Shown piece after piece: positions 2,539 through 43,455 of a stretch of 64,000 bases of DNA. Position numbers and translations under genes: made by a program. The DNA is from a virus (Duplodnaviria; Caudoviricetes), in IMG/VR virus record IMGVR_UViG_3300032236_001024, positions 128,001 through 192,000 of that record, one strand, 5' to 3'. Position 1 is the first letter of the stretch; each line of letters begins with the position of its first letter. Below the pieces are notes generated by a model, which made no database searches, was not told the DNA's origin, and was given only the letters and a program-made list of their open reading frames with translations.

Positions 2539-4587
2539 CTATTTTACTGAAGTTCTAAAAATTCCATCCCAGTCTTTTGGTAACGGGTTCTTCTTATAAT
2601 CTTCAATTCTTTCCATCATCATATCATAGTATTCTTTCATCTCACCATTAAATGCTGGTATAAGAATTGTAAAATAATTATCTAATTGATGCCACTTCTG
2701 AGCACGATAGTAATTAATAAATTCTTTGTGGTACTTCGCATACTTCTCGTTGATATATGTTTTATCTACTATGGTATAAATGTTCACACCTTCTGACTTA
2801 CCCTTAACAGCAAGACAATCTAGTTCTAAACATAAATAATCATCCTTTACATACTCATATGTTTTGGGACCAATAACCATTTTTACATGGTATGGTTTAC
2901 TCTGTCCTTCAAGACGAGACGCCAAGTTAACAGTGTCACCCAAGCAAGTGTAATCAAAACGCTGGGCTGATCCCATATTTCCGACGACAACAGAACCAGT
3001 ATTGATACCAAGACCCATACCAAAAGGAGGAACACCATCCGCAGAAATTTCTTTGTTGAATCTGTCCAAGTCACCCAACATCTCCAATGCTGTCTTAACT
3101 GCATGTTTCGCATGTTCTGCATCATCTAACGGCGCATTCCAGAATGCCATCTGAGCATCACCAATGTATTTATCCAATGTACCTTCATTTTCAATAATCT
3201 TAGCAGTCATCGCTGTCATATAGCGATTCATTATTTGTGTAAGACCTTGTACATCACTACCATAGTGTTCAGATATAGTAGTAAACCCACGAACATCAGT
3301 AAACATAATCGAAAGTTCACGAGTCTCACCTCCTAATTTCAATAATTCTGGATTCTTTTGCAACTTCTCAACTAGTGCTGGAGATAGATAGGTTCCAAAC
3401 TGTTTTTTGATCTGTTGCTTGAGTCTAAATTCTCTAGCAAAATTGTTAAAAATTAATTGTCCAAATAGAAAAATACCTGAAACTAGCATGAAGCTTGCAT
3501 CGAATAATTGCATATACCATGCGAACATGTAATAGGATGAAGCAACTGCAAGGAGGACAAACGATGCGAACAACGGAATTGTCAACTTTACTGAAGTACG
3601 TGGAACCAGAAATAGCAATAACCCTAATAGTAATGTCAACAGGATTAGTTCTATCTCTTTGGCATCTGGCAAGCGTGTTATCGAGGTTCCATCAATGAGG
3701 TTCTGTAATGTTTGAGCTTGTATCTCATGTGCCCATTTTTCTCCATTTGGGGTGGAGATTATACCGCCAACGCCTTCAATAGTCAAACCAAGTATAACAA
3801 CTTTACCTTCAACTCTTTTATCAATTTCAGTTGCTTCTAATGAACTGAACTTATTATTCCAAGCTAACCAAATACGACCACGTTCATCAGTCTTGATTGG
3901 TGGATATTGAGGAACTCTTACTGCTTCAACTCCAAACTCATTTGTTTTAACTTGGAAACTTGGGTCTCCAGCTGCAACACGAATGGTTTCCAAAGGAATA
4001 GATGGATATAAATTCCCTGCAATATTAACAAGTAGAGGCATACGGCGAACAACGCCATCGATTTCAGGGATAGTAGCTGAAACCCCGACGCCTGAAGCAG
4101 ATTCTGAAAAGATATCCAGAGGGCGTAATCCACCAGGCCAACGATAAACAACATTATTAGGGTCAACAGAACCAATTGCAGCGAACCCACGACGAACAGC
4201 ATCTGGTTTACTATTTTGAGTAGTTGGGGTTTGAGCAAGGATAACACCATCAAGAGTTTTTGCAAGTTCACTATCTCCCCCTGCTCTATCTTTTTCTGAA
4301 AATATCATAGGTGCCACTATAACTGTGGCACCATTTTCCTTCAGTTTATTAATTGTTTTAGCAATATCTCTACGATCAAAAGGCCACTGACCAAACTTCT
4401 CTACAGACTTTTCACCAAAATTGACTAAAACTAATTCATCTGACTGTTTTTCAGGCAATGTTTTTATTAAATAATCAAATGTCTTTAATTGAAGAGTCTG
4501 AACAGGACTTGGGTTATAAATGTATAATACTATTAAAAGACATGCAGTAATTACTGCTGCCCAAGTACTGGTAAGATACTTCATCAT
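2539..4587 (-). CDS. class III adenylate cyclase with extracytoplasmic CHASE2 domain and TM helices
   Basis: N-terminal TM, CHASE2 (GQWPFDR, DGVVRRMPL), three further TMs, catalytic FTDVRGFT, DKYIGDA, GDTVNLASRLE. Confidence 0.92.
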   Translation of the reverse strand: MMKYLTSTWAAVITACLLIVLYIYNPSPVQTLQLKTFDYLIKTLPEKQSDELVLVNFGEKSVEKFGQWPFDRRDIAKTINKLKENGATVIVAPMIFSEKDRAGGDSELAKTLDGVILAQTPTTQNSKPDAVRRGFAAIGSVDPNNVVYRWPGGLRPLDIFSESASGVGVSATIPEIDGVVRRMPLLVNIAGNLYPSIPLETIRVAAGDPSFQVKTNEFGVEAVRVPQYPPIKTDERGRIWLAWNNKFSSLEATEIDKRVEGKVVILGLTIEGVGGIISTPNGEKWAHEIQAQTLQNLIDGTSITRLPDAKEIELILLTLLLGLLLFLVPRTSVKLTIPLFASFVLLAVASSYYMFAWYMQLFDASFMLVSGIFLFGQLIFNNFAREFRLKQQIKKQFGTYLSPALVEKLQKNPELLKLGGETRELSIMFTDVRGFTTISEHYGSDVQGLTQIMNRYMTAMTAKIIENEGTLDKYIGDAQMAFWNAPLDDAEHAKHAVKTALEMLGDLDRFNKEISADGVPPFGMGLGINTGSVVVGNMGSAQRFDYTCLGDTVNLASRLEGQSKPYHVKMVIGPKTYEYVKDDYLCLELDCLAVKGKSEGVNIYTIVDKTYINEKYAKYHKEFINYYRAQKWHQLDNYFTILIPAFNGEMKEYYDMMMERIEDYKKNPLPKDWDGIFRTSVK

Positions 4588-39125: not shown

Positions 39126-39938
39126 TCAAAGACTATTGCAATAGTCAAATGCAGCCTTAAATGTAACATTTTCTGTAAGATTGTATGCTTGTTTTGCTAA
39201 ATGACAATGTTCACTTTCATACCATTCAGGGTCCATCAAAAAATGAGTTCCCCTATTTTCTTGAGCATCTCTTTTATTAATTCTTTTACCAAATTGCTCA
39301 ATTCTTTTTGTCATGTTTTCATTCCAAGGACAAAATTTGTATTTCAATGTGAAAATACTATCTGATGTTATCATACCAGTATTATTATGCAATGCATGTC
39401 TTCCTATTGAATAACACCCACTACTCATATTATGATAATATCTACTATACAATATATAATACAAATCATTTGTCAAACCAGAATTGACATCATTTGCTGT
39501 ATAATTGTTTATCATACCATGATGTTTTTGCTCTATTAATGATTTAGAATGTGTTGGCAAATCTTTTAAATTTTCATCTACCATGCATACTGCATGTGTC
39601 TTCAAATAATTTGCATTATTTTTTTGCATATAATCATTAACATCATTCAATGACATGGATGTTAAAAGAAATTCGCCTACAGTGAGAGCTATCTTAAATC
39701 CTTCAACTGTAGTTTCATGTTCTTTAACTTCATTATCAATTGCTTGAGCATCAAAATCATTAGTAGTTGTATCGACAATCTTCCAATTAGAAGGACATAG
39801 TTCTTTGCATATCTCTAATGATCTATCTGTTGAATTATGATTGATCATGATACCATAATCAAACAACTTTTTGTGATGATTAATCCACCATGGTAAAAGA
39901 TATTCTTCATTATAGAAGTGTGTGATGACTGTATTCAT
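39126..39938 (-). CDS. GT2-like glycosyltransferase, paralogue 1
   Basis: MNTVITHFYNEEYLLPWWINHH, STDRS, GRH motif. Confidence 0.7.
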   Translation of the reverse strand: MNTVITHFYNEEYLLPWWINHHKKLFDYGIMINHNSTDRSLEICKELCPSNWKIVDTTTNDFDAQAIDNEVKEHETTVEGFKIALTVGEFLLTSMSLNDVNDYMQKNNANYLKTHAVCMVDENLKDLPTHSKSLIEQKHHGMINNYTANDVNSGLTNDLYYILYSRYYHNMSSGCYSIGRHALHNNTGMITSDSIFTLKYKFCPWNENMTKRIEQFGKRINKRDAQENRGTHFLMDPEWYESEHCHLAKQAYNLTENVTFKAAFDYCNSL

Positions 39939-40735
39939 ATGTAACTCATACAATAATTGTGAGCGTTTAAAAACGATATATCAGTTCTAAGATCATAAGC
40001 ATATTGTGAATAATGTATATGATTTTTATCAATATCTTCTAATGATACTAAATGAGTGTTGCCTCTACCTTGATTTAAATCAGATTGTGGTACTCTTTCA
40101 CCAATTTGAAGCATTCTTTTTTTAAGATTTTCATTCCAAGGTGAATATTTATATTTTAAAGTAAAAACATTTGTTACTCCAGAATGAATCATATCATGAA
40201 CCATGTGTCTTCCTGGGGTATATTTTCCAAATGGCTGATTGTGATAAAATCTTCCGTATACCAATTTAAAATTTTCATTCCATCCATAAATTGTTGGGCA
40301 ATCTTCAATCACGCCATGATATTTTTGAAAAAAAAGAGGATAATCATATGATGGTAATTCATCTGAATACATATCAACCATACGCACACCAATTGTTTTT
40401 ATACATTGCACGTTAAAATGTTTCATATAATCATTTAAATTATTTAATGATATTGGAGTTAGAAAAAATTCTGTGGTGGTTAAAGCTATTTTAAATCCTT
40501 CTACAGAATTTTCATGAAACTTTACTTCCATATCACATTTTTCAGCATCAAAATTTTCATTGATACTATTAACAATCTTCCAATGTGGAGGACACAATTC
40601 TTTACAAATTTCTAATGATCTGTCTGTAGAATGATAATTGATCATGATACCATAATCAAATAATCTTCTATGATGTTTGATCCACCAAGGTAAAAGATAT
40701 TCTTCATTATAGAAGTGTGTGATGACTGTATTCAT
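39935..40735 (-). CDS. GT2-like glycosyltransferase, paralogue 2
   Basis: MNTVITHFYNEEYLLPWWIKHH, STDRS, GRH. Confidence 0.7.
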   Translation of the reverse strand: MNTVITHFYNEEYLLPWWIKHHRRLFDYGIMINYHSTDRSLEICKELCPPHWKIVNSINENFDAEKCDMEVKFHENSVEGFKIALTTTEFFLTPISLNNLNDYMKHFNVQCIKTIGVRMVDMYSDELPSYDYPLFFQKYHGVIEDCPTIYGWNENFKLVYGRFYHNQPFGKYTPGRHMVHDMIHSGVTNVFTLKYKYSPWNENLKKRMLQIGERVPQSDLNQGRGNTHLVSLEDIDKNHIHYSQYAYDLRTDISFLNAHNYCMSYI

Positions 40736-40736
40736 T

Positions 40737-41528
40737 TTACAATCTCCTACAATATTCAAACGCTGCATTAAATGAATGATCGTCTCTTAAATCATGAGAT
40801 AAATTTAAGAAATGTTTATACCATCCATTATGATCTTGCGCCGAATGTAGTGGATAATCTGAAGAAGCGTCTCTTACCTTAGATTCATATTTTAAAATTC
40901 TATCAATCGAAATATCATTCCATGGTGAATACTTATATTTCAATACAAAAACATTATTGACATGCATAACATTATCACAATCTACCAGATTATGTCTTCC
41001 CGGCGAATACTTTCCAAATCTGTTATTATGATAGTATCTACCAAAATTGTGATTCCATGCATCAGGCAACCATGGTTGATTTGGATCAACATAATTTCTA
41101 ATTACGCCATGATGCTTTTGTACAAACAATGGTAAACCATGCGATGGTAAATTGTTTGTATCATTATCTACCATACATACACCAGTTGTCTTTAAGTAGT
41201 TTATATTATTATCAATGATAAATTTATTGATATCATTTAACGGACATGGTGGTAATAAAAATTCAGTGACAGTAAGAGCTATCTTAAATCCTTCAACTGT
41301 GCTTTCATGATATTTAACTTCTAAATCATTTGTTGAAGATAAAAAAACTTCGTTTATCGTATCAACAATTTTCCAATGTGGAGGACATAATTCTCTGCAT
41401 ATCTCTACAGAACGATCAGTAGAATCGTAATTAATCATAATACCATGATCAAATATTTTCTTATGATGATCAATCCACCATGCAAGCATATACTCTTCAT
41501 TATAGAAGTGTGTGATAACTGTATTCAT
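40737..41528 (-). CDS. GT2-like glycosyltransferase, paralogue 3
   Basis: MNTVITHFYNEEYMLAWWIDHH, STDRS, GRH. Confidence 0.7.
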   Translation of the reverse strand: MNTVITHFYNEEYMLAWWIDHHKKIFDHGIMINYDSTDRSVEICRELCPPHWKIVDTINEVFLSSTNDLEVKYHESTVEGFKIALTVTEFLLPPCPLNDINKFIIDNNINYLKTTGVCMVDNDTNNLPSHGLPLFVQKHHGVIRNYVDPNQPWLPDAWNHNFGRYYHNNRFGKYSPGRHNLVDCDNVMHVNNVFVLKYKYSPWNDISIDRILKYESKVRDASSDYPLHSAQDHNGWYKHFLNLSHDLRDDHSFNAAFEYCRRL

Positions 41529-41561
41529 AACCAACTCCAATATTATATTGGTTATTTATAA

Positions 41562-41824: not shown

Positions 41825-41901
41825 TGGTTGGGACAGATGGACTCAAACCATCGACCTCACGATTATCAGTCGTACGCTCTAATCAACTGAGCTATGCCCC
41901 A
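41825..41901 (-). tRNA. tRNA-Ile(GAT)
   Basis: TACGA-CTGATAA-TCGTG, CCA. Confidence 0.92.
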
Positions 41902-42290
41902 ATTAAACCTGAATATTTGTGTCTTTCTCTATTACCTTTACCCTTGTTTAAGGCTTTCCATGTCTCAGTAAGAGAATGACAATTCGGACACAAAACTTTT
42001 AAATTTTCTTTTTTACAGTTCGAACAATCACCATCGATATGATCGATTTCTAATGGAGAATTTCCTGTTTTTGGATTAATTTTATTCCAGCCACATTCTA
42101 CACACTGAAAATTTGATTGTTCTAACATATATTTTCTTACAGCTGTTTTAATTCTATATCCAACTTTGTATCCATGATCTGATCCTTTTAACCAATTTTC
42201 TACAACATCACGAGATTTTTTATCTCCTTGACATTTATTACTACAATATTTTCCAGTTTTTATTTCTGTTTTACAATTTAAGCAGTGCAT
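41892..42290 (-). mobile_element. free-standing HNH endonuclease inside the tRNA cluster
   Basis: YCSNKC, CVECG, LEIDHIDG...N...ENL..LCPNCH; TATAAATA at 42322-42329. Confidence 0.9.
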
Positions 42291-42332
42291 CTAAACCTCC
42301 GAGTTTACAGCCTTCTGCTTTTATTTATAAAA

Positions 42333-42408
42333 TGGTAGACCCTCCGGGGCTCGAACCCGGGACAATTCGATTAAAAGTCGAGTACTCTACCTACTGAGCT
42401 AAGGGTCC
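42333..42408 (-). tRNA. tRNA-Lys(TTT)
   Basis: CTCGA-CTTTTAA-TCGAA, CCA. Confidence 0.92.
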
Positions 42409-42417
42409 AAACTTATT

Positions 42418-42603
42418 AGGAGTGATGTTATGTTATGGATATGGATAGACCGCCATATCGTTCGCTTTACTCTGCAATCTTATTTCAGGTCATGACTCCT
42501 ATTTCGATTGCAACTCAGTTTATGCCGTGCCTGCAGGACAGAGAGCTTTAGGGACTGTGCGCTGCCCAGGAACACTGGGATTTTCCATAACACCACACCT
42601 AAC
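42418..42603 (-). ncRNA. unidentified ~185-nt multibranched structured RNA
   Basis: outer stem TTAGGTGTGGTGTTATGGA/TCCATAAC..CATCACTCCTAA; inner CCCAG/CTGGG, TGCAATC/GATTGCA, ATATGG/CCATAT. Confidence 0.55.
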
Positions 42604-42605
42604 AA

Positions 42606-42722
42606 GTTGTTTCTACAAAGAAGTACCGTTCTGTATAGGATTTGCACCTATCTTTCACCCGACTCCGCAGATGTGTCCTAACTTATAGACGAACAAAACG
42701 ATACTCCTTTGAAGAAACAACC
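42606..42722 (-). ncRNA. tRNA-like domain on a long closing stem
   Basis: GTTGTTTCT..AAAGGAGTATCGTTTTGT/ACAGAACGGTACTTCTTTGTAGAAACAAC stem; D-like GTC/GAC; T-like ATAGG-TGCAAAT-CCTAT. Confidence 0.55.
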
Positions 42723-42812
42723 GTTACACCCACGATGGGGTAAGAATCCCTACTCAGAGAGTACGAATCCCCGATGTTTCTCGTTCCAACAATGTCAAAC
42801 AGCGTATGATGT

Positions 42813-42841
42813 ACAATACCCCACTCCCATATCCGTGTCAA
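42813..42841 (-). promoter_or_regulatory. sigma70-type promoter for the ncRNA/tRNA transcript
   Basis: TTGACA-N17-TATTGT; shares GTTGACACGGA.ATGG with the promoter at 53109-53137. Confidence 0.75.
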
Positions 42842-43455
42842 CTACTATTTTTAGGATATGGCATTATTTTATATTTCAAACTTTGTAACAACTCTTTCTT
42901 TCTTTTCCCCTTAGCATTCAAAAACACATACCTGTGTTTTCTTGGTCTAGGTTTGAGAGAGAACTTGTCGCCATAAAGTTCTTTCAATTCCTGTGATGAG
43001 TATTTATCTGCAATTGTCTGACAATGCCTATCAATACCATCAACAACCCAATTCGTTCTCTTAGCAGATAGTCCTGTATAATACCAGTTTGTTGCCTGAT
43101 ACACAATACCTAAATGCCCTTGTTCTATCTCAGCATATGATACAACAATCTCCTTACCACATTGTTTGATTGTATTCCCTATCAAGAAACTTTCACCATT
43201 CCTTGGTACTGAATCACAAACCCACAACCTAGTAAGTTCTACTACATTGTTTACATTATCATCACCAGCAATTCCTCTCCTTAGAGGCGCAGATGATGGT
43301 GTACCATATACTACAACACCTTTGCATTCATCATCCAGAAACAATCCAAATGCAACACTACAAGGTGCTTTTCTATGAAGATAATGCTTCTCAACAATTA
43401 TCTTCATAGCAGTGTGATAATCAATCCTCTTGATACAGTAGTTCTCAAGAGCCAT
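42838..43455 (-). CDS. mom: Mom-like adenine-modifying acyltransferase
   Basis: HYLHR, ELTRLW, ESFLIG, VSYAE..QGHLGIVYQATNWYYTG, KHRY. Confidence 0.8.
   Translation of the reverse strand: MALENYCIKRIDYHTAMKIIVEKHYLHRKAPCSVAFGLFLDDECKGVVVYGTPSSAPLRRGIAGDDNVNNVVELTRLWVCDSVPRNGESFLIGNTIKQCGKEIVVSYAEIEQGHLGIVYQATNWYYTGLSAKRTNWVVDGIDRHCQTIADKYSSQELKELYGDKFSLKPRPRKHRYVFLNAKGKRKKELLQSLKYKIMPYPKNSS

Follow-up and report, generated by a model that had tools for sequence, protein, structure and literature searches.

Does the noncoding sequence that precedes the tRNA-Lys gene in a phage tRNA array merely space or process the transcript, or is it an RNA with a function of its own? The question is raised by positions 42418–42603 of a 64,000 nucleotide (nt) stretch of DNA (the window), which corresponds to positions 128001–192000 of the complete 202 kb viral record IMGVR_UViG_3300032236_001024 (Caudoviricetes; a record with terminal repeats). 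A first-pass annotation had described this block as an orphan, multibranched RNA of ~185 nt inside the tRNA transcript and had proposed that it is an unannotated noncoding RNA (ncRNA), a ribozyme, or a protein-binding RNA, to be checked by an Rfam scan and an alignment of homologues. We found that the 186 nt block is part of the conserved 3′ module of a larger noncoding unit of 397 nt, and that this RNA represents a new family of structured phage ncRNA (282–413 nt) that is absent from Rfam. On balance, we favor the view that the family, which freshwater T4-like phages encode at the start of their tRNA arrays or within them, is a self-associating RNA made together with the tRNAs.

The block occupies the region's only sizeable noncoding gap, between a Mom-family gene and the gene for tRNA-Lys(UUU), and its GC content (~0.45, versus ~0.30 in the surroundings) agrees with its earlier description as a GC-richer noncoding block. 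No credible open reading frame (ORF) lies over it. A protein-coding reading was dropped because the ORFs that cross the gap are short and unconserved and because close relatives vary by 1 nt insertions or deletions and by paired changes. The block is on the minus strand, which is the strand of all 21 tRNA genes identified in the window by ARAGORN and Rfam. When the 186 nt were folded alone, the folding energy was no better than that of shuffled sequences on either strand (z = −1.4), and so thermodynamics alone is insufficient to support the claim; the whole 432 nt gap folded better than its shuffles (z = −4.1).

Homologues were gathered by scanning viral and metagenome contigs with conserved 19–21-mers. 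In all, ~55 distinct module sequences were found, all from freshwater-lake viral or metagenome contigs, one of them a short contig from a binned betaproteobacterial metagenome-assembled genome. After duplicates had been removed, there were 49 full-length RNAs and further module-only or truncated copies. An initial pattern scan built from the hypervariable part of the RNA gave no matches, and seven loci (L127, L145, L154, L158, L160, L165, and L170) were rejected as chance 19-mer or pattern matches with no module inside. Conserved blocks and paired changes were already apparent in the alignment with the two closest relatives, as was a hypervariable middle. A covariance model (R1), built from the module alignment described below, located a single copy in each of five genomes, with scores of 226–246 bits. 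Among isolate phages, a blastn search of 50,697 phage records did not find the RNA, and only the tRNA part was matched. The phage that carries the RNA in the window is T4-like, with a gp41-type helicase whose DNA is ~72% identical to that of cyanomyoviruses. The helicase is shared at 65%–71% identity in four large contigs (108–173 kb), which indicates that the carriers are one group of related T4-like phages.

Comparison of the homologues defined the fold of the 3′ module. The outer stem, S1, pairs 42586–42608 with 42410–42432 over 22 bp with one U/U mismatch; the first-pass annotation had seen this stem, at a length (~17 bp) that was an underestimate. It had also counted at least three inner helices, and we found seven, which brings the total to eight. 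S1 encloses hairpin Ha, the 3 bp helix S2, and hairpin Hc; S2 leads into a three-way junction from which S3, bearing hairpin Hp, and S4, bearing hairpin Hb, branch off (Table 1). A structure of 58 pairs was written from the window sequence and scored on an alignment of 48 sequences (A2), to which the counts below refer. In this alignment 95.2% of the cells were paired, and 28 of the 58 pairs were changed on both sides, in 140 cells. None of 500 shuffled controls reached any of the five measures used, and when the partners were slid by 1–3 columns, pairing fell to 33%–42%. Every helix had at least one pair that was changed on both sides. S1 had 14, because in L119, L120, and L123 the stem has been almost wholly rewritten and is still complementary. 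RNAalifold, run blind on the same alignment, recovered seven of the eight helices (S1, Ha, S2, S3, S4, Hb, and Hc) and differed only around Hp. The strand was also clear: R1 scored 229 bits on the strand of the tRNAs and 30 bits on the opposite one, and conserved G-U pairs fit the minus strand. A scan for covariation found no convincing additional long-range or pseudoknot pairs. A pairing between the 5′ motif described below and the Ha/S2 region (predicted energy −19 kcal/mol) was dropped because the 5′ bases involved are not conserved. These results confirm that the module is a real, covarying, strand-specific, single-copy folded ncRNA, far beyond what chance would produce, and the proposal of an unannotated ncRNA is thus supported. 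The other two proposals, a ribozyme or a protein-binding RNA, received no support from this analysis, which points to association between RNAs instead.

Table 1. Features of the noncoding RNA and its immediate neighbors (window positions)
Feature	Position	Strand	Remarks
Mom-family protein gene (DNA adenine-modification family)	42838-43455	minus	Pfam PF25680, E 3e-43; directly upstream of the RNA's promoter
σ70-type promoter, TTGACA-17 nt-TATTGT	42813..42841	minus	10/12; best promoter-like site of the region
Whole noncoding RNA unit, 397 nt	42409..42805	minus	extends from the 5′ motif to the nucleotide preceding tRNA-Lys
5′ motif GCUGUUUGACA, boxA-like	42793..42803	minus	family consensus GYUGUUUGAMA; only exact copy in the window
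Helix P2, GAAACAUCG with CGGUUGUUUC	42711..42780 (42772-42780 with 42714-42723)	minus	encloses an insert
Long hairpin, ~23 bp stem	42606..42721	minus	hypervariable tip; lower stem kept with compensatory changes
Tip cassette, cloverleaf-like tRNA mimic	42628..42694	minus	no free acceptor end; minimum-energy fold
Conserved 3′ module (element of the first-pass annotation)	42410..42608	minus	outer stem S1 closing four-way and three-way junctions
Hairpin Ha, CCCAG-UGUUC-CUGGG	42565..42579	minus	C-G to U-A in 14 sequences, C-G to G-C in 10
Hairpin Hp	42525..42541	minus	loop contains self-complementary CCUGCAGG (42530-42537)
Helix S4, UUGCAAUC with GAUUGCAG	42472..42513	minus	four pairs changed on both sides; encloses hairpin Hb
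Hairpin Hb	42487-42500	minus	loop palindrome GUCAUGAC (42489-42496)
Hairpin Hc, GAUAUGG-loop-CCAUAUC	42438..42459	minus	U-A replaced by C-G in 3 sequences; G-U interchanges with A-U and G-C
tRNA-Lys(UUU)	42333..42408	minus	directly downstream of the RNA; ARAGORN and Rfam

What the module may do is suggested by two of its loops. The Hp loop of each of the 48 sequences is self-complementary, and six spellings occur: CCUGCAGG (29 sequences), CUAGCUAG, UCCUAGGA, and CCAGCUGG (5 each), CUGCAG (3), and CGGCCG (1). At the mirror positions of the palindrome, positions 3 and 6 are U-A, A-U, or G-C and positions 2 and 7 are C-G or U-A, so that a switch from one spelling to another requires paired changes. 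In a divergent subgroup the hairpin has been rebuilt with a 6 bp stem and a 13 nt loop, and this loop is again palindromic (CCUAGG). The loop of Hb alternates between the palindromes GUCAUGAC and GUCGCGAC in ~32 of the 48 sequences and forms a plain GGGGUUGCUCCC hairpin in the rest. For self-duplexes of the Hp palindromes, the computed energies range from −7.7 to −14.3 kcal/mol; the two 8 nt palindromes of Hb come out at −10.4 to −13.3 kcal/mol, and GCGCGC, the dimerization loop of HIV-1, at −10.9. A palindrome cannot pair within one loop, and pairing between two copies of the RNA is therefore the simplest reading. Palindromes that switch while remaining self-complementary have been used to support the kissing loops of OLE (L9.3) and GOLLD (L21a) (Kretsch et al., bioRxiv 10.1101/2024.12.08.627333). 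As the variation in the Hp loop always preserves its self-complementarity, it is most likely, judging from these sequence patterns, that two or more copies join by symmetric kissing loops.

One locus indicates that the module does not depend on its surroundings. In L119, which is on the reverse strand of a different phage fragment, the module stands alone between two tRNAs, directly after the CCA end of one and 3 nt before the next, and the locus has neither the 5′ motif nor the long hairpin that lie upstream of the module in the window. The module is thus an autonomous RNA, gene-like within the tRNA array, and not a mere spacer. The same fragment has ORF-free gaps of ~270–310 nt between tRNA genes, one stretch of which gives a weak tRNA-Sec-like match (34.8 bits); these gaps may hold further unclassified RNAs.

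The 3′ module is not the whole unit. Across the 49 distinct full-length homologues, homology begins just past a −10 hexamer and stops at the tRNA, so that the ~185 nt reported earlier captured the conserved 3′ module and missed the remainder of the transcript unit and its promoter (Table 1). The label "orphan" is incomplete, because the block belongs, as the 3′ module, to a larger transcript of modular build. The TTGACA hexamer is unchanged in the two closest relatives, and a promoter-like site scoring at least 9/12 lies 5–26 nt upstream of the RNA in 41 of the 49 homologues; in many homologues the promoter comes after the terminator of the upstream gene. The homologues in which we recognized no such promoter are L090, L082, L110, L085, L096, L118, L129, and L123, and in most cases the intrinsic terminator of the upstream gene immediately precedes the RNA. 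At the other end, the outer stem stops 1 nt before tRNA-Lys with no terminator between the two, which makes the earlier placement of the block inside the tRNA transcript plausible. The gene that follows the RNA is a tRNA in every homologue (Lys, Pro, or Ile), 1–3 nt away. The RNA would be made from its own early σ70-type promoter, together with the tRNAs, and cleavage by RNase P at the 5′ end of the tRNA would set its 3′ end. In L099 (~3600–3680, minus strand), ARAGORN predicted, a short distance upstream of the RNA, a UCA-anticodon tRNA (labelled SeC) flanked by tRNA-Lys and tRNA-Glu, and it did likewise in L095, which has the same array; this tRNA may be opal-suppressor-like.

The 5′ end of the unit carries a short motif that was found in almost all homologues. 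Its consensus can be compared with the published boxA consensus GYTCTTTAANA, which is gamma-proteobacterial (PMC5725501); the family matches 9 of the 11 positions of this consensus, which may not be that of the host. The placement of the motif, 5–26 nt after the −10 hexamer, fits that of a boxA in a leader. The motif may recruit host Nus factors and thereby allow the long untranslated transcript to escape termination.

Between the 5′ motif and the module lie helix P2 and a long hairpin. P2 is kept: L120, L123, and the L003 group have compensatory changes in it. Here it encloses an optional 48 nt insert of two hairpins (42724–42771), and in about half of the homologues it is capped by a GAAA tetraloop. 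The lower stem of the long hairpin is likewise kept, with U-A replaced by C-G in L118, L120, L123, and L129 and by A-U in L002, L003, and L132. The 3′ strand of P2 doubles as the 5′ strand of this lower stem, and because the two helices use one U-rich strand (GGUUGUUUC), they are mutually exclusive. That each is nonetheless maintained suggests a folding intermediate or pathway, or a switch. A processing stalk for RNase III consists of about two turns of near-perfect duplex that flank the released RNA. The stems of 22–26 bp, among them S1 (22 bp) and the long hairpin (~23 bp), are of suitable length, and the enzyme may cut them and release the modules.

The tip of the long hairpin holds one of at least seven unrelated cassettes across the homologues, or none. 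In the window the cassette folds in the order 2 nt, a 4 bp arm with an 8 nt loop, 1 nt, a 6 bp arm with a 6 nt loop, 4 nt, and a 5 bp arm with a 7 nt loop, so that D-like and T-like arms (T-loop UGCAAAU) sit on a closed stem of ~23 bp. This cassette gave no match to a tRNA model. A related cassette in L146 (1806–1873, plus strand) scored 39.7 bits on the Rfam tRNA model, which is above the gathering score; in the place of the anticodon arm it has a 3 bp stub, and it is therefore a tRNA mimic and not a decoding tRNA. The other cassettes are unrelated multihairpin units, and two homologues have a bare hairpin. The upstream hairpin would thus be a socket for exchangeable cassettes, including tRNA mimics that cannot be charged.

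These upstream features also underlie the main rival to our reading, a cis-acting processing scaffold like the leader of an rRNA operon. In this case the RNA would be purely the leader of the tRNA operon, providing antitermination through boxA and Nus factors, RNase III stalks, and aids to cotranscriptional folding, and the enclosed RNA would have no function after processing. The similarities to rRNA operon leaders are a promoter-proximal boxA-like motif, stems of 22–26 bp that bracket structured RNAs, and a long untranslated transcript; the differences are that the enclosed RNAs are not rRNA and that the motif departs from boxA at two positions. The position of the motif relative to the −10 hexamer, the two consecutive stems of suitable length, and the exclusive pairing of P2 and the lower hairpin stem, with compensatory changes in both as a folding pathway predicts, all fit such a leader. 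However, a spacer would not need an interior of ~155 nt with seven conserved helices and invariant joining strands, the lone module in L119 has neither boxA nor upstream hairpin, and the palindromes in the loops are given no role. We consider a purely cis-acting leader unlikely.

We compared the RNA with known families. With Rfam 15 at gathering scores, the only matches in the window were tRNAs. At E values of up to 10 over 42200–43100, and of up to 5 at ten homologous loci, nothing matched at the RNA. The Rfam scan thus placed the block in none of its families, the covariation in the homologue alignment confirmed its structure, and the reported absence of transfer-messenger RNA (tmRNA), RNase P, signal recognition particle (SRP), hammerhead, and group I signatures was borne out by Rfam and ARAGORN. 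Specifically, ARAGORN found no tmRNA, Rfam gave no tmRNA match at the RNA, and tmRNA was dropped as a candidate, two-piece forms included. RNase P, SRP, 6S RNA, group I and group II introns, and small ribozymes gave no Rfam match under the same thresholds. A likeness to RNase P that had been noticed by eye (GGGUGAAA...ACAGAAC) was dropped because the sequence falls within the hypervariable cassette, relatives do not conserve it, and Rfam gives no match. A self-cleaving or otherwise catalytic RNA that aids the processing of tRNA precursors would be in keeping with a complex multijunction fold whose joining strands are invariant and which lies beside processing sites. We regard this as highly improbable, given that no Rfam ribozyme family matched even at E values of up to 10, that RNase P already explains the 3′ end, and that no conserved cleavage-site signature was seen.

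Another alternative is that the module serves a protein, as its RNA partner or as a decoy, with a phage Ro60-like TROVE/vWA protein or a host tRNA-processing or defense factor as candidates, and that the palindromes are incidental or bind a dimeric protein. The long closing stem with its single mismatch and the unusually conserved sequence of the stem strands recall the handles of Y RNAs, and tRNA-mimic cassettes are present on the neighboring hairpin. Bacterial and phage Y RNAs such as YrlA (RF02553) likewise carry a tRNA-like domain on a long closed stem, as the hypervariable cassette does, and the phage may encode a Ro60-like protein. The Ro60-like gene is present in genomes G002 and G004. 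Both G003 (complete) and G001 (93% complete) lack it and carry the RNA, and so the RNA is independent of the Ro60-like gene; a link between the two was dropped because it is not kept across genomes. In addition, the conserved 3′ module, unlike Y RNAs, is not tRNA-like, the YrlA model did not match at the RNA, and the RNA has no consistent protein-coding neighbor: upstream lies a Mom-family gene here and a different gene at other loci. A specific association with Mom was rejected, as only 2 of 80 Mom loci (the closest two relatives) carry the RNA. Taken together, these observations lead us to give a dedicated protein partner little credence.

The closest resemblance is to the large phage RNAs GOLLD and ROOL, which have reportedly been shown in recent work to build RNA-only cages. 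Both occur near tRNA islands, and tRNAs are found in the GOLLD linker; GOLLD joins a conserved 3′ part to a variable 5′ part; and both RNAs carry symmetric kissing loops, among which L21a of GOLLD varies yet stays palindromic (bioRxiv 10.1101/2024.12.08.627333). The RNA described here is likewise phage encoded and adjoins tRNAs, it combines a conserved 3′ region with a variable 5′ or linker region, which can hold tRNAs in GOLLD and holds tRNA-like cassettes here, and its sequence shows the palindromic-loop signature of GOLLD, ROOL, and OLE. In contrast to GOLLD and ROOL, it is far smaller (282–413 nt versus about 580 nt and over 800 nt), has a different helix layout, and is confined to freshwater T4-like phages. 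It also gave no sequence or model match: the GOLLD model (RF02032) found nothing at the RNA in genomes G000–G004 at E values of up to 10, and GOLLD did not appear in the all-family scans. The ROOL model (RF03087) found nothing in the same genomes at the same threshold, and because control genomes were also blank, the negative result for ROOL rests more firmly on the all-family scans. The resemblance to GOLLD is one of design and not of descent.

A stable, self-associating RNA that is GOLLD- or ROOL-like in design, and unrelated to them by model tests, is most likely the mode of action, as far as sequence comparisons can indicate, and an RNA-only particle of joined copies would resemble GOLLD, ROOL, and OLE on a small scale. 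We also considered a more elaborate version, in which modules form dimers or closed rings through the two kissing loops to give a compact self-assembling particle, and the hairpin socket displays exchangeable cassettes, including tRNA mimics that cannot be charged, as bait for host tRNA-directed enzymes or defenses during tRNA production. This version is tentative, and we think it rather doubtful.

T4 itself offers a further comparison, as its tRNA array encodes two small stable RNAs, rnaC and rnaD (species 1 and 2), and rnaC contains a T-arm-like hairpin. The T4 RNAs, of 119 and 139 nt, differ in their position, which is at the 3′ end of the array, and in their length. Model R1 scored no more than 8.2 bits across the T4 tRNA region, and the T4 stable RNAs are therefore an analogy and not homologues. 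The two arrays also have a homing-endonuclease layout in common, with segB interrupting that of T4 and an HNH ORF interrupting this one.

Several observations weigh against a self-associating RNA made together with the tRNAs. The homologues are closely related (mean column identity of 81%), and some of the covariation counts represent few events. A recognizable σ70-type promoter is missing in 8 of the 49 homologues. Positions 4 and 8 of the boxA-like motif deviate from the published consensus; in E. coli, a change at position 4 of boxA (C4T, together with T6C) abolished function (PMC5725501). A lone palindrome in a 36 nt stretch is common by chance (P ~0.43 for 6 nt and 0.13 for 8 nt), and for this reason the argument rests on the six spellings at one aligned position. 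RNAalifold favors another local pairing for part of the Hp loop; this alternative was dropped because it is broken (C/A) in the five CUAGCUAG sequences. The second palindrome, in Hb, is missing in about one third of the members. Finally, everything that we propose beyond the secondary structure is inferred.

Two other features of the surrounding array were observed. An ORF of 132 amino acids between tRNA-Lys and tRNA-Ile (41892–42290, minus strand) has a weak match to Pfam HNH_3 and appears to be an HNH-type endonuclease; its placement matches that of the homing endonuclease gene segB inside the T4 tRNA array. Two paralogous neighboring ORFs of 277 and 267 amino acids (39935–40768 and 40737–41540, minus strand) adjoin the tRNA cluster on its downstream side. 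The one that was scanned, at 40737–41540, has a weak signature of glycosyltransferase family 2.

A small RNA of ~200–400 nt that has the genomic habit of GOLLD and ROOL, a well-supported fold, and the signature of a switching palindrome would be more tractable in structural and genetic studies than its larger counterparts. Its socket for cassettes, tRNA mimics among them, hints at what the cargo or bait of such particles could be. The combination of a boxA-like signal with processing stems suggests, in addition, that in T4-like phages the tRNA arrays may function as transcription units that resemble rRNA operons.
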